A stretch of 54,940 nt of DNA from a phage, in assembly GCA_025829515.1 (NCBI GenBank), contig GCA_025829515.1_4865.2; one strand, written 5' to 3'. The number at the start of each line of letters is the position of its first letter. Position 1 is the stretch's first letter. Both the position numbers and the translations under genes were made by a program. Of this stretch, positions 3,411-27,283 are shown one piece after another. The notes beneath the pieces were generated by a model. The model had not been told where the DNA came from. It was given only the letters and a program-made list of their open reading frames with translations, and did not search any database.

Positions 3411-4781
3411 CTGCAAAGAGCGGATCAAGAAGTACAACAGTAACGCATTACGTAAGGCAGCCAGAGCGGCTTCATGACGGATGTGTGTTTCCCGTGCGGC
3501 CAGTTTCTCAATCCGTTCACGCAACGATAACACGTATGGGTTAGGGGACTTCGAAGCCTGGTACAACGAACGCATACGCAGTAGAACCGTACTCGCATCG
3601 TTAAAGTTCAGACGAGAGGTAACAATTTCATCGAACGCGTGCGATAGCGTGTCCTCCATGATAGCGTTAATCTCATCACGCTTTTTGCCAAGCGGTAGAC
3701 TTGCAATATACGCCAGCAAAGTTTTCAGTGCCGCGGGAGATGCTTTGGGTACTAGCTCCAACACCACTTTTGCTAATTGCTCTTTGTAAAGATTGTTGAT
3801 ATCGTAAGACGCATCGAACAGATTCTGCTTAGCGATATCCAGCGCACCCACTTTGTCACGAATAATCGATTCGCCGTCTAACTCTATACGAGTTGACTGC
3901 GTAATCACACGGCTATTATCGCGACGTACTTTGTCCAGTACCGCGTAATAGTCCTTCACGGTTTGTTTGGTACGGGTGTTCAAGTCGGTGATGAAGCGCA
4001 GCACCAAATCCGGCGTATCGAAGCGTTTAACCGCATCGTAGTTTGGGTACTCTGGGGAACAGAAGTATTCTGAACGCTCCTGCATGTGCAAGCCCCAGTT
4101 ACCTAAACGTCGAATATCGAACTTTAACGACAGCATTGAATACGCAGCGTCGGCGGCGGCCATGTCGACCGGCTTGGGGAAGAAGTGGTAATATATACTG
4201 GAGTAGAATTTGAATTGCAGAAGCGTTACTAACGATACAGCCGCGGCGTGGATTTCACGATCGGCGAATTTCGACATCATTCGATGTAGAGTATACACCG
4301 TAGAGAGGTTATACGGATCACCCGCCACTGCCCAGTCGGTGTTAATCGTGCCCGATTCTTTAATCATCTCGAACAGATAGTCTTCGTCGACTTTCAAGAC
4401 ATCTTCAAAAAAGCGGTTACGGTCAGAATCGTAGAAACGAATGGTGTGGACGCCTAATAGATTAGACCCTAGCCACTCCACATTGCCTTCACGTTTAAGG
4501 ATGTTGTCTACGTGAAGTTGAATTTGCTTTGCAAAACGACGATCGATGACGACGTGTTTAAAGCATTCGTCAAACACTTTACGTAATCGGTCATTCTTCA
4601 TGGCTTCTGCAGCAACCACCAGTCCCATCGGGACGTAGCCGCCAAAACCATAGTCGTAATACAAGCCCGTAGAATACGTGTCATCGTCGAAGAATGGGTC
4701 ACGTCCGAATGATTCGACGGCAACCTTCACTCCGGTATCACGATAACAACCGGTACTGAAATCATAAACCAGTTCAGACAT
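3405..4781 (-). CDS. hypothetical protein
   Basis: 458-aa ORF; ATG at 4779-4781 (minus) preceded by AGAGG. Confidence 0.6.
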   Translation of the reverse strand: MSELVYDFSTGCYRDTGVKVAVESFGRDPFFDDDTYSTGLYYDYGFGGYVPMGLVVAAEAMKNDRLRKVFDECFKHVVIDRRFAKQIQLHVDNILKREGNVEWLGSNLLGVHTIRFYDSDRNRFFEDVLKVDEDYLFEMIKESGTINTDWAVAGDPYNLSTVYTLHRMMSKFADREIHAAAVSLVTLLQFKFYSSIYYHFFPKPVDMAAADAAYSMLSLKFDIRRLGNWGLHMQERSEYFCSPEYPNYDAVKRFDTPDLVLRFITDLNTRTKQTVKDYYAVLDKVRRDNSRVITQSTRIELDGESIIRDKVGALDIAKQNLFDASYDINNLYKEQLAKVVLELVPKASPAALKTLLAYIASLPLGKKRDEINAIMEDTLSHAFDEIVTSRLNFNDASTVLLRMRSLYQASKSPNPYVLSLRERIEKLAARETHIRHEAALAALRNALLLYFLIRSLQK

Positions 4782-8279: not shown

Positions 8280-8855
8280 ATGAACTTGTATCGCATCGGG
8301 TTTTACCGAAACGAGATGCCTGAATCGGTTTTGGTTGTCTTAGCCGAAAACGAGGAGCAGGCCAAATCCTTCTGGCCGGTTAGCGCAGAGCGTCCAGCGG
8401 TTGCGTGCTGCTACGACGGCGCTGTGTCTACCCCGATGGTTACGCCTGGGGTGGTTCTGAAGCAAGGCCGTTGGGATGATTATTCCCATCCCGGTTTGGA
8501 ATTTGTTTCCGAATCCGCCAGACACACCTGGAATCTTACCACGGGTAAAACCAGAGTGTACTTCGGCCACCAAGCCAAGCAACCGTCGCTCATCAAGCTG
8601 TACCTGGTTTACAGCGACGTCGCTACCGAAGACTATGTCGACGCCGGAATCATCGTCGGGGCAACAACCCCCGAGGCGGCATTCGCACATTGGGACGGTG
8701 ATAAACCCGGAATCGTTTCGGTCTGTGAGCTACCACTTGAAGCCGGTTTGGTTACGAACATCAAGTGTGAGCAAGGCCAGGAGCTGACTTGGATGCGCCA
8801 GGATTACCTGACGGAAACGACATTCGAGTACACACCGAGGAAGGTGACCCAATGA
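8280..8855 (+). CDS. hypothetical protein with internal duplication of a ~90-aa domain
   Basis: 191-aa ORF with GGAG RBS; N- and C-terminal halves share an LY...VxA..EEqA pattern, also present in the 9578..9820 product. Confidence 0.5.
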   Translation: MNLYRIGFYRNEMPESVLVVLAENEEQAKSFWPVSAERPAVACCYDGAVSTPMVTPGVVLKQGRWDDYSHPGLEFVSESARHTWNLTTGKTRVYFGHQAKQPSLIKLYLVYSDVATEDYVDAGIIVGATTPEAAFAHWDGDKPGIVSVCELPLEAGLVTNIKCEQGQELTWMRQDYLTETTFEYTPRKVTQ

Positions 8856-9343
8856 CGACGATAGCGTTCGATGGAAAAGTCTTAGCTGCTGACGGTCAGC
8901 TGACCCGCGGGTCGAATATCTGCAACCTGAACACCCAGAAGTTATTCATCTGCCCTTCTGACGAGGAATGGTGGATTACTGGTGAACGGATTGTGGCGTT
9001 CGGAGTAAGCGGTGACATCACAGGACAGTTGGCCCTGCTGGAAACGGTCCGCTTGAGACCCGGCTACAAGGGGTTAACGCAAAGCTCGCAGTTACCTGCG
9101 AAGATGGATTTTACTTTCCTGATGCTTCTGGCCTCAGGAAAAGCGATAGTCGGCGGAAAACGTGAAGACGACGTGACGTTGTGGTGGAGTGAAGCCACAC
9201 CGCCTCTGGCAACCGGAAGCGGTTACGAGTATGCGTTGGGTGCGATGAAGATGGGCGCGAATGCGGTTCGTGCTGTTGAGATTGCGTCCGAATGCGATAT
9301 CTACACCGGTGGTGAGATTAGCACTTACGAATTACGGAGGTGA
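8852..9343 (+). CDS. HslV-like Ntn-hydrolase (proteasome beta-type peptidase homolog)
   Basis: Start MTTIAFDGKVLAADGQ matches the HslV N-terminus MTTIVSV...AGDGQ with Thr2 as candidate nucleophile; GSG motif (LATGSGYEYA) and C-terminal CDIYTGGEISTYEL resemble HslV; ATGA overlap with upstream gene. Confidence 0.75.
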   Translation: MTTIAFDGKVLAADGQLTRGSNICNLNTQKLFICPSDEEWWITGERIVAFGVSGDITGQLALLETVRLRPGYKGLTQSSQLPAKMDFTFLMLLASGKAIVGGKREDDVTLWWSEATPPLATGSGYEYALGAMKMGANAVRAVEIASECDIYTGGEISTYELRR

Positions 9344-9435
9344 ATCATGCGGGAGTCAGAAGCACGCAAGCTTGACCCCATCAATCGCCTGCGATAACGG
9401 GGTAGCGCATCCGTATAAACACGTTCAAGAATTCT

Positions 9436-9511
9436 AGGAAAGTGACGCAATTGGTAGCGTACCGGTCTCCAAAACCGGCTGTTTAGAGTTCGAGTCTCTA
9501 CTTTCCTGCCA
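9436..9511 (+). tRNA. tRNA-Trp (anticodon CCA)
   Basis: Hand-folded cloverleaf: acceptor aggaaag/ctttcct, D-stem acgc/gcgt, anticodon stem ccggt/accgg with loop ctCCAaa, 5-nt variable loop, T-arm tagag-ttcgagt-ctcta, discriminator G and encoded CCA. Confidence 0.8.
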
Positions 9512-9577
9512 CATTTAGCCAACAAGGCCATGATTCAAAGCAGAATGACACCGAATGTCTAACTGCGGAGAATAATC

Positions 9578-9820
9578 ATGAACTTGTATTTGCTAGAACG
9601 AACTGACGATATCGGGTATGATGAATTTGATTCCATAATCGTGGCGGCTCCTACGGAGCAAGCTGCGTGTGCAATTCCTCCCGACTGTGGCCATTGGATG
9701 GACTGCCGCTGGTTACCGAAAGAGCGCTGGGATGAAGGGCTTACCCTGACCGTTACTCTTATCGGTACTACGCACTATCCTGCTGGGACCGTCGTTCATG
9801 AATCGTTCAATGCTGGCTAA
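9578..9820 (+). CDS. hypothetical small protein, paralog of the 8280..8855 repeat domain
   Basis: 80-aa ORF starting MNLY like 8280..8855; GGAG RBS; followed by hairpin 9823-9840. Confidence 0.45.
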   Translation: MNLYLLERTDDIGYDEFDSIIVAAPTEQAACAIPPDCGHWMDCRWLPKERWDEGLTLTVTLIGTTHYPAGTVVHESFNAG

Positions 9821-10865
9821 ACAGTGGGCTTCGGCCCACTAACCCTATTCGAGCCGTGATACTTACTCAGATTGTGCGGGTTGATGTCCCGCATGAGCCG
9901 GTAGCAGCTCAGACCTACGGTAGACCAATAAATCCGTAGCAGCCAGGTACACAAAGTACCAGGTCGCTTGTACAGGATGCTGGGTATCTGACCGGTCATA
10001 ACCTCATTCGATACGAGACACGTTTATGCATGAAATACTCCAGTACATCAGGATGTTGATTTCCAACGTCCGGTTCTGGGTATTCAATCATGTTTGGTTT
10101 ACAGGCGATGGGTTTTCCCGCAAGGGCCCCACTTACAGACTGGCGTCTCCACGACAACCGTCCCTAGGGGACAGGCAAGCACCGGCCCATTAAGCCGCTA
10201 CGCTACGCCTGTAAATCCACAATCTGATAACCGAATGGGATTGAGTTCCCAGTGTTAGGGTGACTGTGTGTCACCGTAGGCGCGGTACCTCATACGGCCG
10301 GTACGCCACGAATGTACGTGATAGCGGGTGGTGCTTGGAGACGCTAAGACCTGACCTTGCGGCCAGGCTCAGAAGAAGAAGTCCATCACCCGCATTCAGA
10401 AATGAATTTAGGTTAATTATTATTTATGGAAGTGATGAAATCGTTTACGTGATAACTTAGTAGTATGCAACGAACAATACCAGAGTGACTTTACGAGGTT
10501 ACTGTGGTATATGTCGGTGCGCCGGGCAACGTGTTGCCGCAGATAAGCCCGAGGGAGCTGAGTGCACTAACACACGCCGGGATGCATCGGCACCTTACAA
10601 TGGGAGCGCTGTCACCATCAGTGATGACAGGAGTGAAGGATTCGTACCTCACTCGACTGGGCGGAAGCCTGGGCGTTCCCCCATCTTCACATCATGGCCG
10701 GCTTGCCGGTTCAACGTAGACGTCTCGTAAGAGATTTCCAGTCAGGCAACTGATAACACACCTAAGCGTCGACCTTGGACGTATGGTGTCTGGTTAAGTC
10801 CCCCGAAACGGAAACCAGTAGGGGTGTGGTACGTTGAGTGTAACTATCATGATGCCATGAACAAT

Positions 10866-10935
10866 GGCTTTGTAGCTCAGGTAGGTAGAGCAACCTCTTC
10901 GAGGAAGGTCGCCGGTTCGAGTCCGGTCAAAGCAA
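10866..10935 (+). tRNA. tRNA-like element with canonical acceptor, D and T arms but a truncated anticodon arm (possible pseudo-tRNA)
   Basis: tagctcaggtaggtagagc D-arm and gccggttcgagtccggt T-arm are tRNA-typical, but only 14 nt (aacctcttcgagga) lie where an 18-nt anticodon arm should be; G1-A72 mismatch. Confidence 0.4.
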
Positions 10936-11009
10936 GAGCAGCGAAGTTAGAGGAATTAACACCCGACTCATAATCGGATATTTCGACGGTTCGAATCCGT
11001 CCGTTTGCT
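10936..11009 (+). tRNA. tRNA-like element, possible tRNA-Met/Ile2 (anticodon CAU), non-canonical D and acceptor arms
   Basis: T-arm gacgg-ttcgaat-ccgtc and anticodon arm cccga-ctCATaa-tcgga are recognisable; acceptor pairing imperfect and the 5' boundary is uncertain. Confidence 0.35.
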
Positions 11010-11390
11010 CGCCCCATTTGTGTTATCCTTATCCCGAAGGCATTCGAAATAAGACGCGTATCCACACACGGGTCAAGGGTAACACGAACCACTTCCGCGG
11101 TCACCGTGTCCATTGCCGCCTACCTGCATGGGCTGTCCTCCGACACGGTGACTTCGGGCCAACTTACAGGCCAGGGCCGTTTGGGTTTTTCTTACGCATC
11201 CATCCAGAGCCACCTCGCGCCCTAGTCTGTATACCCCTTTTCTGTTCCTGGTTTGCCAACTAAATCAATTAAGCCTGGTGCGTTGCCCTGGGAACAGAAA
11301 AACTTATTCGGTTACACACCGAACCCACCCACGAGGGATATGTCGTGGACTACCAATAGAAGCAGCAATAGTAGTAAGAAGGAAAGCAAC

Positions 11391-25331: not shown

Positions 25332-27283
25332 GTGAGAAAGGTACCAAAATTCTACGGAATATCCGGCCGGTTGGTTAGTCAGGATAACTATTTGTCCGAT
25401 TTGCAAATAGAAGCTGCAGCCAAAGGTATTAAACCACCCACTATTATTAACGATGTCGCCGTTAACGGGGATGCTATCGAGGTTGCTGAACTTATCGATC
25501 GCATGGTACAGAACAGAATCGTTGACGAAGAACTGAACTCTGCACCGATTTGTAGTTTGGATTGTCCGGCACCGATCGCGCATCGTTACAATCTCGGTTG
25601 TAAGTGTCCGACGTGTGGCTATGTTGTAACTGAACATCGAATTGAATCCGATGTCTGGTTACGTGCACCCGATGAAATGGGTAACTTCGTCAACCCACGA
25701 TTCTGGGCAATGTTCAATGCTTTCTTTAATAGCAAGTTGAAGAAGTTTGAACGTAACAAGGTCACTATCGAACGCGGTAATGACTTGATGATGTGGATGA
25801 TTGACCCGTATTACCGTATAGAAGAACCAGACGGTAAACGCGCACATGCTGTGAAACGTGTATTGGAAGAACATGGTTTCGTTCGTGGCTTGCGCAATCT
25901 GGTTGATAACCACGTTAGTATCTTTAACATCCTTACCACGCCAGAAGCCTGGAAGGAAATCTTCGCACCTAATCGGCATAACGCCGCTGAAGGTGAACGC
26001 TTACGTTTACAATGGAAGGAGCTATTCGAAACGCAACGTCACGCATTCTTCCCAAGACACTTACCGCTAATCTCCTCTAAACTTATCGTTACTGAGGAAG
26101 GTCGTCGTGGTGTCATGGTAGACCCAGTGTTCACGGGTGCTATTGATGCGGTGAAAAATATCGCGTTGCTCTATACGCGGCGTAAAGCGATCGAACCACG
26201 TTTTCTGATTAGTCGTGCTTTGAAGGCGAACCGTCAGCTAACGTACTTCCACATGGACTTCCGTCGTGAGTCTATGGAAGGTAAACCGGGTGACTATCGT
26301 GCGAAATTGGGTTCTACCCATATCCCGTTCGGTGGTCGTGCAACCATCTCACCTATCTCAGAACCACATGATGCCTGGAAGTTAAAAGCACCATGGCGTT
26401 GGATGGTTGGGTTGATGTCGACCCACATCGAGAACAAACTGCTACGACGCGGTTATTCGTCACGGCAGTGTGAACGTATCGTTGCGAAAGCGGCAATGCA
26501 GTATGACCCGCTTGTAGATGAAATCTTTAAAGAACTGATTCGTGAATCCCCAGGCGGTCTTGGGATCATGGTCATACCGTTACGTAACCCAACGCTGGTA
26601 CAGTTGTCTATTCAAACGCTGTACATCGATGAAGTTGTTACCGATGTTAACCAGTGTTCGCTGCGTATCTCTGACCGTGTGATCAAGATGGCTAACGGTT
26701 CGAAAAGAGCCCCATCGGACGGGAAACCTCTGATGCGTATTCTCCTGAAATGCTGGGAAACCCTAAAGCGTATCTACCAGAAATGGGGACGAAAGTCTGA
26801 AACAACAGATACGATGACCTACGCTAAACAATACTGCTAACGGTTGTGATAATGGGTAATCAGCAGCGAAGCCTCGTGAGAGGAACGTTCAACGACTATC
26901 GCTGAAATGCGAGTAGGGGTCCCAGTGGACTTCGAAGTGGGAGAACACCTAAGGCGATAGCTATGGTGAAGATATAGTCTGTGCCTTATCGAGAGATAAG
27001 GAGGGTGTCTTAGCACACCTGCTGTATACGGAAACGGTATACGGTGGACAAACAGGATTTCGATGGCGACCAGTTCCAGGTACGTTTGCCAGTCGATGAA
27101 ACTGAGATGAAGTTGGCGCTCCAATTCCGTCCAGATAACGGCTTTATGTCTTCTACTGATGTGGACCGCGTAGAACACGGCATGGTTTTACATAACGAGC
27201 TAATCAGTATGCAGAACCAGTTCCTTATTGAAGCAGATGAGGATGATGAAGAAGGCATTCCGTTGGAAGCGGTGATGGGCTAA
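25332..27283 (+). CDS. multisubunit RNA polymerase beta'-like N-terminal fragment, interrupted by a group I intron (exon 1 ~25332..26662, exon 2 ~27037..27283)
   Basis: Exon 1 has a beta'-type zinc ribbon (CSLDCPAPIAHRYNLGCKCPTCG), FRRESMEGK...GGRATISPISEP and IPLRNPTLVQLSIQ (cf. E. coli NRAPTLHRLGIQ); downstream frame encodes DFDGDQFQVRLPVDETEMKLALQF (cf. [26 protein letters not shown]); the two parts are in different frames ~370 nt apart and the second has no RBS. Confidence 0.65.
26663..27036 (+). ncRNA. putative ORF-less group I intron (boundaries +/- ~10 nt)
   Basis: Core elements in canonical order: P-like ggacgggaaa (26717-26727), Q-like aatcagcagcgaagcc (26858-26873), R-like gttcaacgactat (26887-26899), and aagatatagtc (26969-26979) identical to the Tetrahymena intron S element; gactat and atagtc can form P7; a U-ended exon 1 and G-ended intron restore the frame. 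Confidence 0.55.

Follow-up and report, generated by a model that had tools for sequence, protein, structure and literature searches.

RESULTS

The kilobase between the tRNA genes

The stretch of DNA that we analyzed (the window, 54,940 nucleotides) is 99% identical to SPN3US-like jumbo phages and thus comes from an SPN3US-type giant Salmonella phage. SPN3US serves as a genetic model for the giant phiKZ-related phages (PMC5105663). The gap at 9821-10865 is flanked by a tRNA-Trp gene (9436-9511) and a pair of tRNA-like genes, as the original prediction had placed it. The first tRNA-like gene (10866-10935, + strand; 40.9 bits with the Rfam tRNA model) has intact acceptor, D, and T arms and an anticodon loop of only 3 nt, and its homologs carry insertions of 38 to 60 nt at the anticodon position. 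In the second (10938-11009, + strand; 30.6 bits), the anticodon arm, with CAU, is invariant and the acceptor stem is bulged. ARAGORN rejects both. A full tRNA array lies directly 3′ of the homologous block in Seoulvirus, Machinavirus, Erskinevirus, and Wellingtonvirus relatives, and relatives have 6 to 12 tRNAs at the equivalent place, whereas the phage studied here has one good and two defective tRNAs. Other genera have TerB, TciB-like, and TAXI genes between the pair formed by tRNA-Trp and an 80-aa ORF and the RNA element that we call motif A, and two relatives have HNH endonuclease genes inserted near the equivalent locus. Many records of this phage group conventionally start within a few kilobases of the region. 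All of the public records that we examined leave the kilobase blank or fill it with inconsistent "hypothetical protein" calls.

The conserved 80-aa ORF (9578-9820) is followed directly 3′ of its stop by a perfect hairpin with a UUCG loop, AGUGGGC-UUCG-GCCCACU (9823-9840, + strand), which we read in the sequence and which the alignment shows to be retained in SPAsTU and pEa_SNUABM_29. This hairpin is probably the transcript 3′ end or a stabilizer of the 80-aa ORF gene.

The original prediction described the region as GC rich and hairpin dense. The GC content proved only slightly elevated (51.6%, versus 48.6% for the window), and we counted 13 perfect 5-bp hairpins, compared with a mean of 10.7 ± 5.2 in other 1045-nt windows, 24% of which have at least 13. 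The hairpin density of the lone sequence is no higher than chance. Folding z-scores against shuffles were marginal for 9872-10025 (−1.8) and no better than shuffles for 10194-10400 (−0.4). The three hairpins singled out by the prediction were located at 10160 (gtccc-tag-gggac), 10259 (ggtgac-tgtgt-gtcacc), and 10525 (ggcaac-gtg-ttgcc). Comparison with relatives identified those at 10160 and 10259 as conserved helices with compensatory changes; the hairpin at 10525 is unconserved even inside the genus.

Motif A, a covarying element that can stand alone

Covariation in 19 sequences identified a structured RNA of about 150 nt, motif A (9872-10020, + strand). It consists of hairpin H1 (9875-9893), a junction helix CGGU/ACCG (9899-9902 with 9991-9994), hairpin H2 (9915-9920 with 9934-9939), and the stacked helices H3/H4 (about 9944-9950 with 9984-9990, and 9959-9962 with 9980-9983), all on the + strand. 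H3/H4 enclose an invariant internal loop, ACACAAAG, and are followed by a conserved AUUCGAU tail. Over 27 pairs in the 19 sequences, pairing was 94.7%, compared with 32 to 44% when the partners were slid; the 94.7%, like the corresponding value for motif B, is inflated because the structures were built from subsets of the same alignments in which pairs were counted, while the slide controls and compensatory counts are robust. Compensatory changes occur at 20 of the 27 pairs, and the motif A model (R2) scores 96 to 147 bits in every relative. Comparison of frames across relatives found no conserved ORF in motif A on either strand, and two minus-strand ORFs (9817-9999 and 9996-10157) that are open in the window are closed in the relatives.

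Motif A does not always have the same neighbors. In SA002 and pEa_SNUABM_48 it lies 23 nt 3′ of tRNA-Tyr, with neither motif B nor the small ORF described below, and the next ORF, about 190 nt downstream, is a different gene. SA002 gave no match to the motif B model (R1), and the Petsuvirus phages Sureiya and OBP matched neither R1 nor R2.

A small conserved ORF

The original prediction saw no convincing ORF in the region. No ORF exceeds 81 codons, but there is a 55-codon ORF at 10026-10193 (+ strand; MHEILQYIRMLISNVRFWVFNHVWFTGDGFSRKGPTYRLASPRQPSLGDRQAPAH), and 17 of 17 relatives keep the same frame open, with lengths of 55 to 69 aa. Its N-terminal half is conserved at the protein level, with the motif W-x5/6-[WR]-[FLV]-[TSA]-G; indels in the 3′ half of the aligned genes are multiples of three; and the UAA stop is invariant and is located in the loop that a conserved stem (CGG...CCG) closes. 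Differences at codon positions 1, 2, and 3 number 155, 85, and 229, and there are 117 synonymous codon changes. The claim was therefore partly wrong, since the frame is conserved and substitutions are biased by codon position, a coding signature by which 10026-10193 reads as an overlooked 55-codon gene. A protein conserved in one frame among relatives, which the prediction had named as evidence against itself, was found across 168 of the 1045 bases, those of the small ORF, and nowhere in the rest. The ORF matches phrog_26199, of unknown function (E = 1e-4 to 5e-8), and only some relatives have it annotated, as a hypothetical protein. A protein search recovered nothing beyond the query's own entry, since the word index has low sensitivity for proteins of 60 aa. 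In Machina-type phages, UAUAUAUGC occurs mainly at the start of the small ORF and before the next gene; a promoter role for it could not be established.

Motif B overlaps the small ORF

The C-terminal half of the small ORF overlaps the 5′ third of a second structured RNA of about 300 nt, motif B (10096-10400, + strand), identified by covariation in 16 sequences. Its elements, all on the + strand, include a GNRA-capped hairpin, CCC-GCAA-GGG, present in most lineages and replaced by other sequence in Erskinevirus/Wellingtonvirus relatives; a hairpin at 10160-10172; the stem-loop bearing the small-ORF stop; an invariant hairpin, GGGA-UUGAGU-UCCC (10231-10244); a hairpin at 10259-10275; a swappable hairpin (about 10277-10310); and a long 3′ helix (10324-10336 with 10379-10393) that encloses the conserved strands GGUGCUUGGAG and CAGAAGAAGAAGUCCAUC. 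Pairing over 52 pairs in the 16 sequences was 97.3%, inflated as for motif A, compared with 31 to 49% when slid. Compensatory changes were found at 17 of the 52 pairs in the 16 sequences (an 11-sequence version was also made), and several helices never vary and so are neither supported nor refuted by the pair counts. Model R1 scores 244 to 313 bits in the 16 sequences and about 155 to 160 bits in degenerate Wellington-type copies.

Because its 5′ third overlaps a translated-looking ORF, coding constraint may account for part of the conservation of motif B, and ribosomes on the small ORF would melt that third. Past 10193, frames compared across relatives revealed no conserved ORF on either strand of motif B. 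The sequence 3′ of motif B varies by lineage, being a ParB-like gene, tRNA-Gly, or an AT-rich spacer; in Asesino and phiEaH2 the motif ends 6 to 7 nt upstream of tRNA-Gly.

Genus-specific sequence from 10401 to 10595

In the window, motif B is followed by an AT-rich spacer (10401-10476, + strand), recognized by a dip in GC content to 44 to 45% and by conservation in Seoulvirus. A small hairpin lies within it, together with the motif UUAGGUUAAUUA and a conserved AGUAGUAUGCAACGA; in SA002, motif A is followed by a similar motif, UUAAGUUAAUU. The spacer may hold transcription signals for the phage's own RNA polymerases. A promoter-motif check found no second copy of the conserved UAGUAUGCAAC in the window, and a scan for sigma-70 promoters and terminators gave matches at chance level, although its relevance is doubtful for a phage with its own RNA polymerases.

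Two stem-loop domains were modeled by RNAalifold at 10477-10595 (+ strand), a long hairpin spanning about 10477-10510 and, at about 10512-10592, a branched stem that includes the unconserved ggcaac-gtg-ttgcc hairpin. Conservation of this block is limited to Seoulvirus. It is 80 to 86% identical to SPAsTU and pEa_SNUABM_29, in which it ends at the start of a tRNA-Tyr gene. Compensatory changes were seen at 3 of the 56 modeled pairs in four sequences, and the model points only weakly to folded domains here.

A cloverleaf in a tRNA slot

RNAalifold and RNAfold both predicted an 85-nt cloverleaf RNA ending in CCA at 10602-10683 (+ strand). An 8-bp acceptor-like stem is combined with a D-like arm and a long anticodon-like arm, whose loop is AUUCGUA, and the place of the T arm is taken by a 6-bp stem with a GGAA tetraloop. 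The cloverleaf is 95% identical in SPAsTU, where it is directly 3′ of tRNA-Gln, and 83% identical in pEa_SNUABM_29. The Asesino copy (90.6% identical) fills the gap between tRNA-Ile and tRNA-His with spacers of 4 to 5 nt. Five of the 28 consensus pairs show compensatory changes in four sequences, and the folding z-score is −2.8. ARAGORN gave no hit to it, the Rfam tRNA model did not match it at E ≤ 10, nor in Asesino or SPAsTU, and it is unannotated in 30 of 30 phage records. Both the cloverleaf and the next tRNA-like gene are preceded by an ACAAU leader.

The remaining sequence, up to the tRNA-like pair, is a lineage-specific filler of about 180 nt (10684-10865, + strand), for which a homology search found homologs only in near-identical phages and no protein-family match. 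SPN3US lacks both the cloverleaf and 10684-10865, with the gap bounded by the direct repeat ACAAUGG. Therefore, neither the cloverleaf nor the filler is essential, and the filler is dispensable.

Strand, family, and distribution of the elements

Within the supported helices there are 79 G·U cells versus 6 A·C cells. Since G·U far exceeds A·C, the + strand is the RNA strand. The Rfam scan that the original prediction had proposed yielded no Rfam 15 family for motif A, motif B, or the cloverleaf; the runs covered the whole window (gathering score), 9500-11300 (E ≤ 10), and five relatives (E ≤ 1). Matches at 9500-11300 and in the five relatives were to tRNAs only, and the tRNA model found no further tRNA remnant in the region. 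The models for ROOL (RF03087) and GOLLD (RF01998) had no match in the window, at 9500-11300 (E ≤ 10), or in the five relatives (E ≤ 1). Neither tmRNA nor RNase P RNA was found: ARAGORN reported no tmRNA, and Rfam gave no hits in the window, at 9500-11300, or in the five relatives. The group I intron model (RF00028) detected an intron at 26680-27001 in the window (69.4 bits), so the test works; it had no match at 9500-11300, and no split gene flanks the region.

The prediction had named small RNAs or decayed mobile-element remnants as common contents of such a position in phages. The former suggestion held up, in that most of 9872-10683 consists of cross-genus RNA elements with strong covariation and a clear + strand signature. 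The latter found no support: the nine ORFs of 43 to 81 aa in the region had no Pfam or PHROGs match with E below 0.05, and so none to HNH, GIY-YIG, LAGLIDADG, or transposase families, in a test that does pick up the intact HNH_3 genes of relatives, and the region lacks a group I intron signal. The intuition about location was nonetheless reasonable because of the HNH endonuclease genes nearby in two relatives.

Host mimicry was checked by comparing 9872-10400 with 5,426 E. coli genomes by blastn, which gave no match. Scans of IMG/VR and JGI metagenomes with the motifs returned the same phage group only; loci L027-L029, L031, L033, L037, and L039 were set aside as chance matches, L039 being eukaryotic-looking. 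Our comparison covers relatives from 4 to 6 lineages, and its depth is limited because the families occur only within a single group of related enterobacterial jumbo phages. Possible contacts between motifs A and B (long-range or kissing pairs of AGCCAG/UUGGUU and of an ACACA internal loop with a UGUGU hairpin loop) were rejected, being unsupported by variation in SPAsTU, pEa_SNUABM_29, and locus L016. Resemblances noted by eye were likewise rejected: RNase P CR-I shares only the 6-nt AAGUCC, and the 23S GTPase-center RNA and the TPP riboswitch share short strings only, none with model support.

DISCUSSION

Comparative evidence indicates that this seemingly empty kilobase holds at least three conserved, folded RNA elements outside known families. 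The alignments show conservation and base-pair covariation in each module, a + strand signature, the modular independence of motif A, the exact tRNA-like placement of the cloverleaf, and the coding signature in the small ORF. With three unmatched folded elements and an overlooked 55-codon gene, the region is a new example of the structured RNAs found at phage tRNA islands.

In T4, species I and II are stable RNAs that are processed together with tRNAs. The map of the T4 tRNA region shows them as "RNA species I and II" (PMC2330249). The present elements would resemble them as small stable RNAs among phage tRNA genes, from the same precursors, but are predicted from sequence, whereas the T4 RNAs have documented expression and processing, and SPN3US-type phages are not related to T4. 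ROOL and GOLLD, which occur in phages and prophages and have no known function, are "often near tRNA islands" (PMC12286853). Like them, the elements described here are large structured phage RNAs with several domains and with conserved and variable parts, and were discovered by covariation, not by function. Like ROOL, they are phage encoded beside a tRNA island; the block is directly upstream of tRNA arrays in all relatives, a feature of context. However, they have no covariance-model similarity to ROOL or GOLLD even at E ≤ 10. ROOL is about 580 nt, compared with about 150 and 300 nt for the present modules; here one module overlaps a conserved small protein gene, and motif A can stand alone. 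The hosts differ as well: ROOL and GOLLD belong to phages of Lactobacillales, the rumen, or the sea, and the present elements belong to enterobacterial jumbo phages. The cloverleaf, in turn, resembles tRNA (RF00005) in its four arms, 7- to 8-bp acceptor stem, 3′ CCA, and position in a tRNA slot, and its shape could be recognized by RNase P. It differs from tRNA in having no T loop, no spacer between the acceptor stem and D arm, and an over-long anticodon arm.

We favor, with somewhat more confidence than doubt, the interpretation that the region is a noncoding extension of the tRNA island carrying independently conserved RNA modules, most likely processed, stable, trans-acting RNAs. It would be read rightward, in the same direction as the flanking tRNA genes, through motif A, the 55-aa gene, motif B, whose 5′ end falls within the 3′ half of that gene, and the cloverleaf, with genus-specific stems and dispensable filler completing the series. 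The modules would be made within long tRNA-island transcripts, which host enzymes could cut: RNase P at tRNA 5′ ends, 3′ trimming enzymes, and RNase E in AU-rich spacers. The products would be discrete, stable, folded RNAs acting in trans, for example, in translation, tRNA handling, or counter-defense. Cotranscription with the tRNAs, processing to stable RNAs, and a role in trans are thus what we consider most likely, with transcript ends, stability, and processing proposed from position only. The positions that suggest tRNA-type processing are the close approach of motif B to tRNA-Gly in Asesino and phiEaH2, that of motif A to tRNA-Tyr in SA002, the tRNA slot of the cloverleaf in Asesino and its place after tRNA-Gln in SPAsTU, and the ACAAU leader shared by the cloverleaf and the next tRNA-like gene.

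Regulation in cis is a less probable alternative, in which motif A is a riboswitch-like or protein-binding 5′ leader controlling the small ORF and motif B is a structured 3′ untranslated region or a translation-coupled attenuator. As an attenuator, motif B would set read-through into the downstream tRNA array. Much of the arrangement is consistent with this. The ORF starts about 27 to 35 nt past the motif A junction helix in five lineages, and a small conserved hairpin/AUUCGAU tail precedes the start. Like riboswitches and ribosomal protein leaders, motif A is compact and usually sits just upstream of an ORF start, and its multihelix junction with invariant unpaired nucleotides is aptamer-like. 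Downstream, a conserved loop contains the ORF stop, and the ORF extends into the first helices of motif B, so that translation and folding of the overlapped part would be mutually exclusive. However, motif A occurs without the small ORF or motif B in SA002 and pEa_SNUABM_48, the gene downstream of motif A is inconstant, and what follows motif B differs among lineages. Motif A matches no described riboswitch or leader class in Rfam, and the Trp codons of the peptide are unclustered, unlike those of classical attenuators. The independence of motif A also counts against the idea that 9872-10400 is a single multidomain "ornate" RNA of about 530 nt, with motifs A and B as domains and the small-ORF region as a variable linker, which we think improbable. 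Motifs A and B are contiguous and colinear in all Seoul-, Machina-, Erskine-, and Wellington-type phages that we examined, beside a tRNA island as are ROOL and GOLLD, and the GNRA tetraloops and swappable hairpin are features typical of RNAs that make tertiary contacts. GOLLD, too, is conserved in its 3′ region, less so in its 5′ region, and has a linker, sometimes with a tRNA (PMC12286853). But the "linker" here carries a clear protein-coding signature, no robust covarying helix links A and B, and in Machina-type phages motif A is separated from the ORF by a sequence that resembles the signal preceding the next gene. Such an RNA, ROOL/GOLLD-like in size and context, might assemble into higher-order particles, which in ROOL and GOLLD take the form of self-assembled homo-oligomeric cages. 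We give equally little weight to a version in which motif A, motif B, and the small ORF form a dual-function RNA of about 530 nt that encodes a peptide, folds into a tertiary or oligomeric particle, and handles tRNAs or ribosomes in infected cells; if true, SPN3US-type jumbo phages would have a new class of large "ornate" RNA joined to their tRNA island.

Two further explanations deny the region any role as RNA. That it is the functionless remains of lost genes, lost tRNAs, or a mobile element, with hairpins by chance, is very improbable for the region as a whole. The higher tRNA counts of relatives, the TerB, TciB-like, and TAXI genes inside part of the island in other genera, the HNH endonuclease genes inserted nearby in two relatives, and the ordinary hairpin count are all compatible with decay, as is the stretch at 10684-10865, which has no homolog past near-identical phages and is deleted in SPN3US. 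Against decay, pairing at 94 to 97% (inflated as noted above) is kept through dozens of two-sided substitutions in lineages only 50 to 60% identical in the block, the cloverleaf is 90 to 95% identical between genera, the ORF fragments match no protein family, and Rfam recovers no further tRNA remnant. By this covariation, decay is refuted for 9872-10400 and 10602-10683, and it is possible for 10684-10865. A DNA-level element, such as a replication origin, a packaging site, or an array of inverted repeats bound by protein, is hardly credible. The region is rich in inverted repeats and within a few kilobases of the conventional record start, but the asymmetry of G·U over A·C cells fits a + strand RNA and not cruciforms or symmetric protein sites, and the GNRA and UUCG loops, the CCA-ending cloverleaf, and its placement in a tRNA slot are features of RNA.

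Natural variants are at hand for functional comparison: SPN3US without the cloverleaf and SA002 with motif A alone. The hairpin of motif B that exists in three interchangeable versions offers a further natural comparison. Annotation pipelines should include these RNA elements and the 55-aa gene. The region adds a Gram-negative, genetically tractable case to the unexplained association between tRNA islands and structured RNAs that is seen with ROOL, GOLLD, and T4 species I and II.

A coding-poor gap of ordinary composition beside the tRNA genes

The window comes from an SPN3US-type jumbo phage: 9400-11300 shares 99% identity with Salmonella phages SPFM and SPLA and 95-97% with SPN3US, SEGD1, and Proteus phage 7. 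All genes flanking the region under study (9821-10865) read rightward. It is preceded by an HslV-like peptidase gene (8789-9343, +), tRNA-Trp (9436-9511, +), and a conserved 80-aa ORF (9578-9820, +) and followed by two tRNA-like sequences (10866-10935 and 10938-11009, both +), a second noncoding gap (11010-11252), and a 320-aa ORF that starts at 11253 (+). The 80-aa ORF, which belongs to phrog_5444, a family of unknown function, adjoins tRNA genes in all lineages looked at, among them SA002, Sureiya, and OBP.

The original prediction described this region as GC-rich and hairpin-dense. The three hairpins it quoted were found, at 10160, 10259, and 10525. However, the GC content is 51.6%, compared with 48.6% for the window, and the 13 perfect short hairpins are not exceptional against the 10.7 ± 5.2 of other 1-kb windows. 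Folding energies were not clearly better than those of shuffled controls (z = -1.8 and -0.4). The window sequence alone gives no statistical ground for naming the region structured: the gap is genuinely coding poor, with ordinary GC and hairpin density.

A scan of 9500-11300 with Rfam 15 at E<=10, of the kind originally suggested, matched no family but tRNA, and neither did scans at E<=1 of the homologous stretches from five relatives. This library did pick up a group I catalytic intron at another site in the window (26680-27001, +; Intron_gpI, 69.4 bits, E=1e-15). ARAGORN found no tmRNA, and 9872-10400 has no similarity to Escherichia coli genomes.

The region is conserved upstream of tRNA arrays

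In other Seoulvirus lineages (SPAsTU and Erwinia phage pEa_SNUABM_29), 9821-10595 aligns at 76-80% identity, and the alignment stops exactly at the start of the real tRNA array (Tyr, Glu, Asp, Ile, Gln, Asn). By blastn, the core of the region was also found in Machinavirus, Erskinevirus, and Wellingtonvirus phages of Erwinia and Salmonella, always just upstream of the tRNA array; the relatives' records annotate it inconsistently, as nothing, as a + strand ORF, or as a - strand ORF. The alignments consist of near-invariant blocks split by hairpins, both sides of which change in step. Scanning IMG/VR and JGI metagenomes with the conserved motifs returned the same phage group only.

Two covarying RNA motifs flank and overlap a small gene

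In motif A (9872-10020, +), a 5' hairpin and a junction helix (CGGU/ACCG) are combined with another hairpin, whose 13-nt loop is conserved, and with a stacked pair of helices surrounding the invariant internal loop ACACAAAG. Its covariance model, built from 11 sequences, retrieved 19 distinct copies at 96-147 bits. In the 19-copy alignment the 27 pairs are 94.7% canonical, and sliding the partners by 1-3 columns lowers this to 32-44%; both sides change at 20 of these pairs, and no shuffle reached the covariation score. The same model detected motif A in Salmonella phage SA002, where the junction helix becomes CGAU/AUCG, and in Erwinia phage pEa_SNUABM_48, phages of a different group (288-294 kb). 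There it begins 23 nt past tRNA-Tyr and motif B is absent; therefore, motif A is an independent module.

The order of the 80-aa ORF and motif A differs, with the ORF first in the window and motif A first in SA002. We also observed more perfect hairpins within the 180 nt that follow motif A in SA002 (locus L049, 5813-5990), CCAUCAC...GUGAUGG and GAUCCGGGUACGUCCCGGAUC, together with an AT-rich UUAAGUUAAUU motif resembling one past motif B in the window. This stretch is 89% conserved in pEa_SNUABM_48.

Motif B (10096-10400, +) contains GNRA-capped hairpins, an invariant GGGA-UUGAGU-UCCC hairpin, a swappable hairpin, and a long 3' helix enclosing the invariant strands GGUGCUUGGAG and CAGAAGAAGAAGUCCAUC. 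Its model retrieved 16 distinct sequences at 244-313 bits and scored degenerate Wellington-type copies at ~155-160 bits. The 52 pairs are 97.3% canonical, compared with 31-49% when slid, with two-sided changes at 17 of them (a version with 11 sequences was also computed); again, the covariation score was reached by no shuffle. Two of the originally quoted hairpins are helices of motif B, whereas the third, within 10477-10595, is unconserved. In Asesino and phiEaH2, motif B stops 6-7 nt ahead of the first base of tRNA-Gly.

The swappable hairpin (~10277-10310) exists in three unrelated, interchangeable versions distributed against phylogeny. The window version (GGCGCGGUACCUCAUACGGCCGGUACGCC) is near-exact in the distant phages pSal-SNUABM-04 and Asesino and at three further loci of distant phages (L016, L020, and L022). 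Close relatives have another version in its place: one case is Machina, whose block shares 92% identity with that of pSal-SNUABM-04, and another is SPAsTU and pEa_SNUABM_29 compared with the window. This pattern points to modular exchange.

In the supported helices of both motifs, G·U cells number 79 and A·C cells 6. Such an asymmetry is the mark of an RNA read from the + strand, in the tRNA direction, and speaks against an element that acts as DNA. Covariation and wobble asymmetry together rule out both neutral decay and DNA-level readings of the conserved modules.

Nothing in the region is open beyond 81 codons, in keeping with the statement that there was no convincing ORF, but that statement missed a small ORF at 10026-10193. 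By three-frame translation of 12, later 17, relatives, a single frame is open for 55-69 codons in every one, with 2-6 stops in the other frames. The N-terminal half is conserved as protein, with an amphipathic stretch followed by W-x5/6-[WR]-[FLV]-[TSA]-G-x-G. Within clades, differences at codon positions 1, 2, and 3 number 155, 85, and 229, and there are 117 synonymous codon changes. Amino acids vary in the C-terminal half, where indels are all multiples of three, and every version ends in one invariant UAA in the loop of a conserved stem. The ORF also matches a family of unknown function, phrog_26199, and by these sequence criteria it is a real small gene. A conserved protein in one frame, named in advance as evidence against a noncoding region, is thus present for 168 of the 1045 bases; in motif B past 10193, no frame is conserved across relatives on either strand. 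The first third of motif B falls inside this ORF, and therefore translation and folding there are mutually exclusive.

A cloverleaf fills a tRNA slot in Asesino

Beyond an AT-rich spacer (10401-10476), the stems at 10477-10595 are kept only within Seoulvirus, with little covariation available. They are followed by an 85-nt cloverleaf (10602-10683, +) with an 8-bp acceptor stem, a CCA tail, and a "T arm" consisting of a 6-bp stem with a GGAA tetraloop. The element is 95% identical in SPAsTU, directly after tRNA-Gln. In Asesino it is 90.6% identical and fits precisely into the slot between tRNA-Ile and tRNA-His. Such conservation is typical of tRNAs themselves, in genomes whose block otherwise shows 50-60% identity. 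Covariation was seen at five pairs in an alignment of four sequences. Neither ARAGORN nor the Rfam tRNA model accepted the element, and it is left unannotated in all of 30 phage records. The adjacent 10684-10865 has homologs only in near-identical phages. Both are missing from SPN3US and are therefore dispensable.

The SPN3US gap (10604-10860) is bounded by a direct repeat, ACAATGG (RNA: ACAAUGG), at 10597-10603 and 10861-10867, which is the 5' leader of the cloverleaf and of the next tRNA-like gene. This suggests that one unit was lost (or gained) through recombination between leaders. That next gene (10866-10935) has normal acceptor, D, and T arms and an anticodon loop of just 3 nt. At the anticodon position its homologs carry insertions of 38 nt in SPAsTU (L005, ~4093-4200) and ~60 nt in Asesino (L007, 3807-3927), the latter annotated as a 121-nt tRNA-Ile(aat). 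Rather than a simple pseudogene, this first gene resembles a conserved tRNA-shaped RNA that does not decode. The second gene (10938-11009), also rejected by ARAGORN, has a CAU anticodon arm that is invariant across genera and an acceptor stem with two-sided changes between relatives; this gene may encode a functional, if unusual, Met/Ile2-type tRNA. The gap that follows (11010-11252), which shows 76% identity to pEa_SNUABM_29, holds a long inverted repeat (ggtcaccgtgtc...gacacggtgac, ~11089-11144) and may be one more conserved RNA element.

Unannotated gaps of ~1 kb also lie beside tRNA genes in the Petsuvirus jumbo phages Sureiya (L047, 7409-8508) and OBP (L048, 7883-8921), with a homolog of the 80-aa ORF close by. 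Neither gap matched the models of motif A or motif B; they may hold other RNAs.

A proposed release of the modules from the tRNA island

Motif A, motif B, and the cloverleaf are very probably functional RNAs. We propose that the modules would be transcribed together with the tRNA island and that the host tRNA-processing machinery would release them as stable folded RNAs, because all of them lie on the tRNA strand, abut tRNA genes or fill tRNA slots depending on the lineage, and are conserved as RNA. In the main rival, motif A would serve the small ORF as a leader and motif B would serve it as an attenuator or a structured 3' UTR; this reading is favored by the tight A-ORF-B spacing in five lineages but sits poorly with the occurrence of motif A alone in SA002-type phages and with the variation of the downstream genes. 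A single 530-nt "ornate" dual-function RNA is possible but unsupported. We hold the processed, trans-acting model with moderate confidence, and release from the island seems to us, as a whole, a reasonably likely explanation.

The original interpretation offered small RNAs or decayed mobile-element remnants and overlooked one ORF. The conserved, covarying modules bear out the small RNAs. Remnants find no such backing: the nine further ORFs of the region have no match in Pfam or PHROGs, and there is no trace of a decayed homing endonuclease. Intact HNH_3 (+ NUMOD4) homing-endonuclease-like genes, absent from the window, are inserted in the tRNA region of Salmonella phage 1252 (L003, 3169-3708) and pEa_SNUABM_29 (L004, 3322-3858).

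Our literature search found no published description of these RNA elements. Tests for membership placed the elements in neither ROOL nor GOLLD. Together with RNA species I and II of the T4 tRNA cluster (PMC2330249), the ROOL and GOLLD RNAs are the closest precedents, with a kinship in kind and context only. As RNA families the elements are new; their kind, structured RNAs attached to phage tRNA islands, is already known.
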